Source: Candidatus Moraniibacteriota bacterium
GTDB lineage: Bacteria; Patescibacteriota; Minisyncoccia; Moranbacterales; GCA-2747515
Length of the DNA stretch: 64,000 nt
Reading direction: 5' to 3'
Assembly: GCA_016699795.1 (NCBI GenBank)
Contig: CP065011.1
Location: 226,474-290,473, forward strand
Under the pieces are notes generated by a model, which did no database searches, had not been told where the DNA came from, and was given only the letters and a program-made list of their open reading frames with translations. The position numbers were made by a program, and so were the translations under genes. Positions 7,505 to 9,127 of the stretch are shown here, piece after piece (the stretch's first letter is position 1; every line of letters begins with the position of its first letter).

Positions 7505-9127
7505 TTATGAGTTCTTAAAACAAAATGGGCACCACTGGCCTCGCAATATATTATTCGGTGTCGCCTCCCAATTGTGCCCTCTCTCACATTGCCATTTCAA
7601 TTTTGTCTTATTGTTTGCATAGACGCTTGATAGGCATTTCCCTTTCTTCGTTTTAGCAAAATTCATCATATCTTGAATTGTCCGTTTCACCCTCAATGAG
7701 CAATACGGACACCAACTTCCCCGCATAATATTTGATGGCTGTGCTGACCATATATGTTCCTTTACGCATACCCACTTTAATGGGCTATGTATACTAATAA
7801 ATTCATCTGAAAGACACTTACCTCCTTTTTTCGAGGCTAACCTATTCATGTCCGCGATTGAATATTTTCTAATTTTTTCCGCAATTATTTTATTTGAACA
7901 CTTCGGACACCAATGTCCACCACGTATACTGCCAGGCGTAGTTTCCCAAATATGTCCCTCTGCACATTGCCATCTAAGCTTCGTCCGGGCATCAAGATAT
8001 TGTGCCGAGAGACATTTTCCCCCTCTGCTCAGGGCAATAGCTCTCATATCTTGAATACCTAACACTGGCCGACTTGAACACTTCGGACACCAATATCCCT
8101 GCTTAATTTGCGTTGGTGGCGCCTCCCATTGATGGCCCTTTTTACATTTCCAAAGTAAAGGGATAAATATACCAAGATAATATTTTGAAAGACACTTTCC
8201 TCCGTTTTTTTCAGCTATTAATTTCAACTCTCCGATGTTCTCATCAGAATAAACATCAAAGGTTCTATAATCTATTTCTCCAATTCCGGTAGGAATACCT
8301 ATTCTCAGTTCTTTACATCTCTTGACGATATAATCTTGCAACTCATCTAGCTTGATGTAGTAAGGGATTTCGATAAGCACAACGTCATGCTTCTTACATA
8401 AATCGCGCTTCAGACGGTCTCTCTCTAGAACAGAATTGTTATTGTAAGAACCAAAGAAATTCCTTTTCAATGGGTAGTGTTGAACTCCTTGATATTCGAA
8501 CGCCAAATTTAGTTCTTTGCAGTAACCGTCTAATTCGAGAGGGCGATTACTTTTTGACATCAACCACTTGGGTCGCGTTTTAATAAATCGCTTTTTGGAA
8601 ATCGCTTCAAACATTTTTTTACAAATCCTCTCATTACGGGCAGAAGAACACTCGGGACACCATTGTCCCTGTTGAATACTTGCAGGTTTCATCTCCCAAA
8701 TATGAGCACGAGAACATTTCCACTGGAGCTTAGAATGAGCGGTTGTATATTCATTTGATAAGCATTTCCCTCCTCTGAACTTCGCAATCTCGCGCATTGC
8801 TTCGATGCCCAACATCTGTCCCTTCCCTCTTTCTTTATACGAACATTTCAGGCACCAACTACCTTTGCGGTTTCTTGAACCCAAAATCGAGGAAGGCTTT
8901 GCTTCCCAAATATGTCCAAGGCCACATCGCCACTTGAGCGCAGTAGAGAGGTTGATGTAAACCGCAGAAAGGCAGGCTCCACCCCTCGCTTTAGCAGTAG
9001 CCTTCATTTTTTCAATTGTATGGTTTACGAGGTTCATCTTGACGAGAAATAGTGTTTTATCTAATGCAATAGTATAAGAAGAATTAGTAGTTGGCAATGG
9101 ACACCATGGAACGTTTGAGTCTCTCAT
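7505..9127 (-). CDS. protein with seven tandem treble-clef zinc-ribbon repeats (2 N-terminal, 5 C-terminal) flanking a Vsr/DUF559-like endonuclease core
   Basis: Repeat unit GGKCLSxxY...KLxWxCxxGHxWEAxPxxIxxGxWCPxCS occurs seven times. The central segment LELDGYCKELNLAFEYQGVQHY...RDRLKRDLCKKHDVVLIEIPY matches the ..IEvDGxxH..D..R..L..GxxVlRf.. pattern of Vsr-like (DUF559) nucleases. Confidence 0.7.
   Translation of the reverse strand: MRDSNVPWCPLPTTNSSYTIALDKTLFLVKMNLVNHTIEKMKATAKARGGACLSAVYINLSTALKWRCGLGHIWEAKPSSILGSRNRKGSWCLKCSYKERGKGQMLGIEAMREIAKFRGGKCLSNEYTTAHSKLQWKCSRAHIWEMKPASIQQGQWCPECSSARNERICKKMFEAISKKRFIKTRPKWLMSKSNRPLELDGYCKELNLAFEYQGVQHYPLKRNFFGSYNNNSVLERDRLKRDLCKKHDVVLIEIPYYIKLDELQDYIVKRCKELRIGIPTGIGEIDYRTFDVYSDENIGELKLIAEKNGGKCLSKYYLGIFIPLLWKCKKGHQWEAPPTQIKQGYWCPKCSSRPVLGIQDMRAIALSRGGKCLSAQYLDARTKLRWQCAEGHIWETTPGSIRGGHWCPKCSNKIIAEKIRKYSIADMNRLASKKGGKCLSDEFISIHSPLKWVCVKEHIWSAQPSNIMRGSWCPYCSLRVKRTIQDMMNFAKTKKGKCLSSVYANNKTKLKWQCERGHNWEATPNNILRGQWCPFCFKNS

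Follow-up and report, generated by a model that had tools for sequence, protein, structure and literature searches.

The gene and its reading frame

The window analysed here is a stretch of 64,000 nucleotides (contig CP065011.1, positions 226,474 to 290,473 of the forward strand) from a metagenome-assembled genome (MAG) of a Candidatus Moraniibacteriota bacterium, a member of the Candidate Phyla Radiation (CPR). The list of open reading frames (ORFs) of the window includes one of 540 amino acids (aa) that runs without interruption at 7505-9127 on the minus strand. Based on the ORF call and a hidden Markov model (HMM) of its repeats, it is predicted to encode an array of zinc modules, a nuclease and a second array of zinc modules. 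A 540-aa protein with a repeated GGKCLS...WxCxxGHxW...WCPxC pattern had been proposed for this position by an initial annotation made from the DNA letters alone, and both the protein and the pattern are present.

The NCBI annotation begins the gene at Met105, giving a product of 436 aa. Because this start deletes an intact first repeat, Met31 (9037) or Met1 (9127) on the minus strand is the more plausible candidate and the probable true start, and Met105 is probably a mis-called start that truncates a ligand-complete first zinc module. Between the ORF and a direct repeat upstream of it lies a GC-rich (0.43), non-coding leader of about 220 nucleotides (nt) on the same strand (9128-9346), which matched no Rfam family even at E ≤ 1.

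Six CapR/DUF4379 zinc modules

A pattern search placed six repeats in the protein, two N-terminal and four C-terminal of its central segment, with WxCxxxHxW anchors at residues 66, 136, 326, 386, 452 and 512, each followed by WCxxC. The repeat unit is about 60 aa long and comprises a helix (IxxMxxIA), the GGKCLS motif, a hairpin carrying WxCxxGHxW, and WCPxC, with a fifth conserved cysteine located in GGKC. Initially, seven repeats (2+5) of about 45 aa had been counted; both the pattern search and a permissive HMM search give six (2+4), and the unit is longer once the conserved N-terminal helix is included.

The HMM, built from 88 repeat units of the family, recovered all six with independent E-values between 1e-24 and 1e-30, each on the minus strand. 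Repeat 1 (8825-9022, residues ~36-101, E = 5.6e-24) has a five-residue insertion ahead of WCLKC and is followed by repeat 2 (8627-8806, residues ~108-167, E = 5.2e-27). The C-terminal arm consists of repeat 3 (8069-8239, residues ~297-353, E = 1.1e-25), repeat 4 (7886-8056, residues ~358-414, E = 1.2e-29), repeat 5 (7676-7861, residues ~423-484, E = 7.9e-27) and repeat 6 (7508-7681, residues ~483-540, E = 4.4e-29). No seventh or degenerate repeat was found with this model under the most permissive settings (--max, E ≤ 100, six frames of 7400-9600). The N-terminal WCPLP, considered as a possible repeat remnant, was likewise undetected by the repeat HMM in a search that took in the first 30 residues of the protein and the DNA upstream. 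Pairwise identity among the six repeats is only 38-54%, which marks the array as old and diverged and rules out a recent tandem duplication.

The repeats match the Pfam family DUF4379 (PF14311, "probable treble clef zinc finger") in six stretches with 91 bits against a cut-off of 24.5 bits (E = 5.5e-26), which bears out the original assignment to a DUF4379-type zinc module. They also match the CapR homology domain (PF21817) with 53.1 bits against a cut-off of 24.2 bits (E = 3.8e-14). Conservation was assessed in 1,121 units of the repeat, drawn from 120 homologs. Five residues that could serve as ligands, C(-16), C0, H+4, C+19 and C+22, recur in 86-100% of these units, the values of 100% for C0 and H+4 following from the construction of the search pattern. 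Hypervariable positions are -21, -7, +11, +15, +21 and +25 relative to the WxC cysteine. In the AlphaFold2 (AF2) model of repeat 4 (predicted local distance difference test score, pLDDT, of 85.6), the C-x3-H motif occupies the turn linking strand 30-33 to strand 39-42, with CPxC opening helix 54-61. This predicted arrangement is consistent with a treble-clef zinc finger. A fold search with the repeat unit against the PDB gave no meaningful match among solved structures.

CapR is the capsid repressor of the Vibrio satellite PLE and represents a domesticated DNA-binding domain of phage homing endonucleases (PMC8096241). It was shown experimentally to bind DNA in a sequence-specific manner, and mutation of its four cysteines abolishes binding (PMC8096241). 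The array of the window protein may act as a modular DNA-recognition device, in agreement with published views on CapR-like domains (PMC12350094, PMC8096241).

The central domain is a predicted Vsr/EDxHD-like nuclease

The central segment, LELDGYCKELNLAFEYQGVQHY...RDRLKRDLCKKHDVVLIEIPY, was found at residues 197-256. It lies within a predicted nuclease core with a Vsr/EDxHD-like PD-(D/E)XK fold (8357-8632, minus strand, residues 166-257), which is followed by a C-terminal helical extension and linker (8228-8356, minus strand, residues 258-300), as indicated by helix 100-113 of the AF2 model and by the family alignment. Conservation of this domain was evaluated in samples of 50 diverse members and 112 sequences. 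Residues E166, E198, D200, G201, E211, G214, H217 and D237 are invariant in these 50-112 homologous segments, and E174, K240, C169 and C244 are near-invariant, with position 213 varying between Gln and His in the family alignment. The window protein retains every one of these conserved core residues.

The residues that define the EDxHD group are E170, D196, E206, N208, H213 and D222 in I-Bth0305I and E25, D51, F62, H64, H69 and D97 in Vsr (PMC3239194). Mapped according to that work, the equivalents in the window protein occur in the same order: E166 or E174, D200, E211, Q213, H217 and D237, with E211 as the acidic residue at the position of Vsr F62. The AF2 model of the core (pLDDT 90) has the alpha-beta-beta-beta-alpha-beta topology of restriction endonucleases. 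The presence of intact invariant catalytic residues across the family argues for selection on catalysis.

These residues also bear on the idea that the protein has been domesticated to bind DNA, for instance as a repressor or nucleoid factor in the manner of PLE CapR, and that its nuclease core serves as a scaffold only. CapR itself provides a precedent, being a homing-endonuclease DNA-binding domain domesticated as a repressor (PMC8096241), and co-option of homing endonucleases is frequent. However, CapR lost its nuclease domain entirely, whereas the predicted catalytic residues are all invariant in this family and intact in the window protein, making such a role very unlikely.

Two of the near-invariant residues are cysteines, C169 (encoded at ~8621-8623) and C244 (~8396-8398); C203 and C271 are conserved at about 70%. 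C169 and C244 are not equivalent to the zinc site of Vsr and may form an extra structural metal site or a disulfide.

A Foldseek search of the PDB with the core gave no significant E-value. The only full-length matches were Vsr (1vsr, template modelling (TM) scores of 0.52/0.54) and the catalytic domain of I-Bth0305I (3r3p), and the next nuclease matches were the R2 restriction-like endonuclease (RLE), TnsA, McrC, AbaSI and PvuRts1I. As Vsr is the best full-length structural match, a Vsr-type T:G mismatch repair endonuclease or another housekeeping repair enzyme was considered. Against this, there is no sequence-level similarity to Vsr and no adjacent dcm-type methylase, the family has a patchy, island-tied distribution, the locus is compositionally foreign, and recognition of a lesion needs no six sequence-reading modules; we find a repair function barely credible.

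The top Foldseek match in the PDB and another near the top are mitoribosomal proteins, which we assume to be RAP-like. They could indicate that the central domain acts on RNA in the manner of the Vsr-like domains of RAP/FASTK proteins, with the repeats mediating protein interactions, redox chemistry or metal storage. Homologs also carry faint Pfam labels for Redoxin, thioredoxin and Jiv90, and no solved structure matches the repeat, which points in the same direction. The Redoxin and Jiv90 labels, however, are faint matches driven by CxxC motifs, CapR modules bind DNA experimentally, and the closest relatives of the protein are DNA homing endonucleases, so we regard a role away from DNA as extremely unlikely.

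At the level of sequence profiles, Pfam DUF559 (PF04480) and Vsr (PF03852), the two models suggested initially for the central segment, gave no match to it at E ≤ 10. Elsewhere, DUF559 was matched by one of the 50 family members (E = 0.076) and by ORF13 of Staphylococcus phage Stau2 (E = 0.031). The related model DUF2726 (PF10881, cut-off 24.7 bits) did not match the window protein and was weakly matched by 20 of the 50 family members (best E = 2.2e-4). Ten inspected DUF2726 matches scored 11.7-16.7 bits and covered profile positions 74-123, which correspond to the catalytic half. VSR, DUF559, DUF2726 and 3r3p have been placed in one PD-(D/E)XK clade (PMC3424549). Comparison with I-Bth0305I by hhalign gave P = 0.087 with a small profile and P = 0.0025 with a profile of 268 sequences; the latter aligned D200 with D196, E211 with E206, Q213 with N208 and D237 with D222, the register expected. 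ORF029 of the I-Bth0305I phage was confirmed as 3r3p, and when the I-Bth0305I catalytic domain was used to search for homologs, nothing but the protein itself was retrieved, so that no EDxHD profile was obtained.

Thus, although the two Pfam models named at the outset failed to recognize the domain, its assignment to the Vsr/DUF559 clade is upheld by the invariant catalytic residues, the fold, the recurrent weak DUF2726 matches and strong homology to phage proteins annotated as VSR homing endonucleases. Strong sequence similarity to annotated VSR or homing nucleases is confined to uncharacterised phage proteins. The core is very probably an active nuclease of the Vsr/DUF559/DUF2726/EDxHD clade and appears to form a divergent branch missed by current Pfam models.

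Viral relatives

A tblastn search found 84 matching phage records. The family profile aligned by hhalign with ORF194 of phage 0305phi8-36, annotated as a "homing nuclease" (99.1%), and with ORF171 of Enterococcus phage 113 (98.8%, E = 5.5e-17), annotated as a "group I intron-associated VSR homing endonuclease". ORF171 has three CapR and two DUF4379 stretches, all in its N-terminal part. ORF171 and Stau2 ORF13, which also carries N-terminal CapR/DUF4379 modules, are located between the halves of split terminase genes. Since Rfam at its gathering threshold detected no group I intron in either phage locus, their intron context rests on the depositors' annotation and on the split terminase genes. 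PHROG families annotated as homing or intron-encoded endonucleases match as well.

Among predicted viral structures, the BFVD database contained 72 matches to the core at E ≤ 1e-3, led by proteins of Mimivirus, Klosneuvirus and Pithovirus. These giant-virus matches show 30-44% identity with TM scores of 0.7-0.84 and bear labels such as "zinc-ribbon", "treble clef" and "restriction endonuclease", and matches lower in the ranking include phage homing, group I intron and VSR endonucleases. Together with the 84 phage records, they substantiate the link to giant-virus and phage homing-type nucleases that had been drawn in the initial annotation. The combination of CapR-like domains with an EDxHD/Vsr-like nuclease was recently described as a large unrecognised group of homing endonucleases and a new outgroup (Nucleic Acids Res 2025, PMC12350094).

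Distribution of the family

A full-length homolog search retrieved 3,595 homologs. The central domain is present in 113 of the best 120, almost always flanked by repeats on both sides. They usually have 9-13 repeats (maximum 13), the commonest layouts being 4+5, 5+5 and 5+7. Hosts of homologs include Bacillus thuringiensis, Priestia, Paenibacillus, Lysinibacillus, Burkholderia, CPR bacteria, Woesearchaeota, Nanoarchaeota and Thermoplasmata. An exhaustive search with an HMM of the nuclease gave 2,830 cluster representatives at a strict threshold (E ≤ 1e-30) and 10,303 at E ≤ 1e-10, the looser count being inflated by a profile edge that includes part of a repeat. Other members of the family fuse the nuclease to NUMOD3 or helix-turn-helix (HTH) modules.

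A multi-module array in a bacterium, regarded at first as unusual, is therefore ordinary: the same layout recurs in 113 of 120 best homologs, and the family has 2,830 cluster representatives at the strict threshold. The array of the window protein is among the shortest; with six modules it is the shortest of the tallied homologs that have both arms. A literature search found no description of the cellular bipartite long-array layout or of its genomic context.

The direct repeats and the putative cassette

Two 86-nt direct repeats, 92% identical to each other, lie on either side of the nuclease gene. Copy A (6204-6289) marks the downstream boundary and copy B (9347-9432), just downstream of tRNA-Glu, the upstream boundary of a putative cassette of 3.1 kb. 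They bracket exactly two genes, the nuclease gene and a gene of 319 aa, plus the leader. The GC content of the direct repeats is 0.54-0.57 against 0.36 for the genome. The 319-aa gene (6500-7459, minus strand) is co-oriented and downstream; its product has no Pfam domain and matches PD-T7-5 (1.6e-15) and PD-T7-1 (2.7e-8), two anti-phage models of PADLOC, as well as phrog_8571, making it a candidate defence gene in a CPR bacterium. The GC content of the nuclease gene is 0.409, compared with a window mean of 0.353, which ranks it among the highest 0.3% of windows of its size; the trinucleotide profile of the cassette falls in the top 0.9%. The inserted cassette is a well-motivated inference.

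No further copies of the 86-nt repeat were found in the window, and exact-pattern scans of genome and metagenome collections returned none. A RecG-anchored locus search for an empty site yielded one non-syntenic contig of 2 kb. The possibility that the 86-nt repeat is a structured, tRNA-like or tmRNA-like RNA was discarded, as Rfam (E-value mode) found none and folding z-scores were -0.75 to +0.53. The repeat could represent a site of the att type or a duplicated homing site.

Next to this region, the 41-nt 5' half of tRNA-Glu(TTC), extending to the anticodon loop, is duplicated at 9525-9565 and 9865-9905 (95% identical). The two half copies flank an 83-aa stand-alone GIY-YIG gene (9565-9816, minus strand; Pfam E = 7.6e-17), and Rfam found no intron at this tRNA-Glu/GIY-YIG site. 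It looks as if a small GIY-YIG element had been inserted at, or had displaced, the anticodon-loop position of the tRNA gene. At the far end of the window (~61000-64000), the GC skew flips from about -0.2, the value over most of the window, to +0.26, and the AT skew is strongly negative; a replication origin or terminus, or a switch of the coding strand, could be the cause.

Genomic contexts of homologs

Eight of the nine contexts examined, the window included, are defence or mobile islands. In B. thuringiensis, the homolog lies near an OLD-like TOPRIM/PRTase-CE protein and an integrase; in Paenibacillus, near nSTAND3, HNH and integrase genes; and in Priestia, near ScoMcrA-like, NucS-like, SIR2-HEPN and HsdR genes. 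In four MAGs, the neighbours are a DNA methylase and MwoI; ApeA and a Type IIG restriction-modification enzyme; HicAB, an integrase and ParA; and a helicase-RAP protein, an excisionase-like HTH protein and a resolvase. In an archaeon, they are housekeeping genes. There is no partner gene conserved across the eight homolog contexts, and a conserved partnership with the PD-T7-5-like neighbour was rejected, because such a neighbour occurs in none of them.

Near one family member, in an element with a serine recombinase, a gene (positions 861-4730 of that locus) encodes a helicase of 1,289 aa (AAA_11/AAA_12) with MTES_1575 and RAP domains. We take these two domains to be Vsr-like, which would make the helicase a second Vsr-clade nuclease in that island.

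Proposed function

The protein is likely a Mg2+-dependent DNA endonuclease that owes its specificity to the zinc-module array flanking the catalytic core. In the proposed mechanism, the six zinc-binding CapR/DUF4379 modules, each composed of a helix and a Cys/His knuckle of treble-clef-like form, would contact a long stretch of DNA to either side of the cut, and the central Vsr/EDxHD-type PD-(D/E)XK domain would cleave the DNA. The metal would be held by D200 and E211, the general base would be H217, positioned by D237, and E166 or E174 would take the role of Vsr Glu25. As a selfish gene, it would spread horizontally and would have arrived together with the PD-T7-5-like gene in the 3.1-kb cassette beside tRNA-Glu.

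Taken as a whole, this reading, a free-standing, site-specific, selfish endonuclease of the homing type, has in our estimate an even chance of being correct. The selfish role is favoured because every relative that carries an annotation is a homing endonuclease from a phage or giant virus, no partner gene is present and the DNA is apparently acquired. Several observations weigh against it. The central domain, searched within the whole protein or as residues 161-300 alone, has no significant sequence match in Pfam, NCBIfam or the PDB, profile comparison of the central domain with Vsr found nothing, and the profile match to I-Bth0305I, though correct in register, reaches only P = 0.0025. The elevated GC content could partly reflect the Cys/Gly/Trp-rich repeats. 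Insertion is deduced indirectly, because neither the collections scanned nor the RecG-anchored search produced a genome with an empty site. In 5850-10050, Rfam finds only tRNA-Glu; an intron, an intein and a recognisable homing site are all absent. Classical homing, moreover, creates no 86-nt direct repeats. Finally, the consistent location in defence islands would be explained just as well by a defence role.

Such a role would be that of a stand-alone anti-phage or anti-plasmid nuclease, whose array recognises the sequence or modification state of invader DNA and whose Vsr-like domain destroys that DNA, perhaps in concert with the PD-T7-5-like gene next to it. The island contexts (8/9), this neighbour and the conserved catalytic residues all agree with it. 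However, no model of PADLOC-DB v2 matches the protein or its nuclease domain, and no publication was found that presents this nuclease family as a means of defence. A conserved partner is lacking, as is any obvious way of telling self from non-self, for instance a cognate methylase. Among relatives with an annotation, the nearest are homing endonucleases associated with introns in phages and giant viruses, that is, attackers, and selfish nucleases accumulate in such islands too. We consider a defence function, the main alternative, possible but less likely than the selfish role. A more specific proposal is that the cellular long-array proteins, with 6-13 diverged modules on both sides of the nuclease, form a distinct single-polypeptide class that reads DNA through a modular code like that of transcription activator-like effectors (TALEs) or zinc fingers, a few base pairs per module, and restricts invader DNA in bacterial and archaeal defence islands instead of homing; this appears improbable.

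The selfish homing-type endonuclease is thus the reading we prefer. For annotation, the analysis provides the functional label "CapR-array EDxHD/Vsr-like endonuclease" and corrects both the start codon and the number of repeats. The family, whose biochemistry is uncharacterised, is very large, with thousands of 50%-identity clusters in bacteria, archaea, phages and giant viruses, and databases label such proteins only as "zinc-ribbon domain-containing", because no Pfam model recognises the nuclease domain. If the arrays do read DNA modularly, they would offer a natural platform for long-target nucleases and help to explain the specificity of selfish or defence nucleases, and the six-module CPR protein would be a convenient minimal model. 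Since the domain combination was published in 2025, no new biological principle is involved.

Comparison with known systems

PLE CapR shares with the window repeats their Pfam domain and shows cysteine-dependent DNA binding (PMC8096241), but it is a single-module repressor of 15.5 kDa from which a nuclease is absent. CapR relatives in phage ICP1 carry nuclease domains of the T5orf172/GIY-YIG type and not Vsr-like ones. Vsr (1vsr/1cw0) is the best full-length fold match of the core and uses an equivalent Asp-His-Asp catalytic logic. In contrast to the window protein, it is a repair enzyme made of a single domain, which has a zinc site of its own and Trp residues that intercalate into DNA; it has no DNA-reading array, shows no detectable sequence similarity and is found in a different genomic context.

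I-Bth0305I (3r3p), the EDxHD prototype (PMC3239194), has the catalytic set E, D, acidic residue, H and D in the same order as the window core. The window protein is predicted to share its alpha/beta core of the restriction type, and 3r3p is among the top four Foldseek matches in the PDB. Their sequence similarity is marginal, and I-Bth0305I binds DNA through NUMOD/HTH modules, whereas the window protein has zinc modules. I-Bth0305I is assigned to Pfam DUF559, while the window domain matches no Pfam model. The window family further differs from it in an extra beta-strand segment of about eight residues between helix 1 and the D200 strand and in the conserved cysteines C169 and C244.

The relatives from giant viruses (Nucleocytoviricota), such as A0A481Z0R9 of Mimivirus LCMiAC01 and A0A1V0SKV6 of Klosneuvirus, have the same nuclease domain as the window protein (TM scores of 0.76-0.84, E-values down to 4.5e-14). 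They are long proteins annotated with zinc ribbons or treble clefs, viral instead of cellular, and likewise uncharacterised.

The homing endonucleases of phage group I/II introns that combine domains of the CapR-like type with EDxHD/Vsr-like ones (PMC12350094) share with the window protein both the CapR/DUF4379 modules of about 60 aa and a homologous nuclease, with ELD...E.QG.QH...D..K invariant in both. The phage proteins, represented by ORF171 and Stau2 ORF13, are about 310 aa long, with 3-5 modules all N-terminal and the nuclease C-terminal, and are encoded within introns that split essential phage genes. In contrast, the window gene is free-standing in a bacterial chromosome and lies in no intron, and its nuclease is set amid a 2+4 array; cellular relatives have up to 13 modules, unlike the phage proteins. 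Thus, the domain combination is already known, and the window protein adds to it a variant, bipartite architecture.

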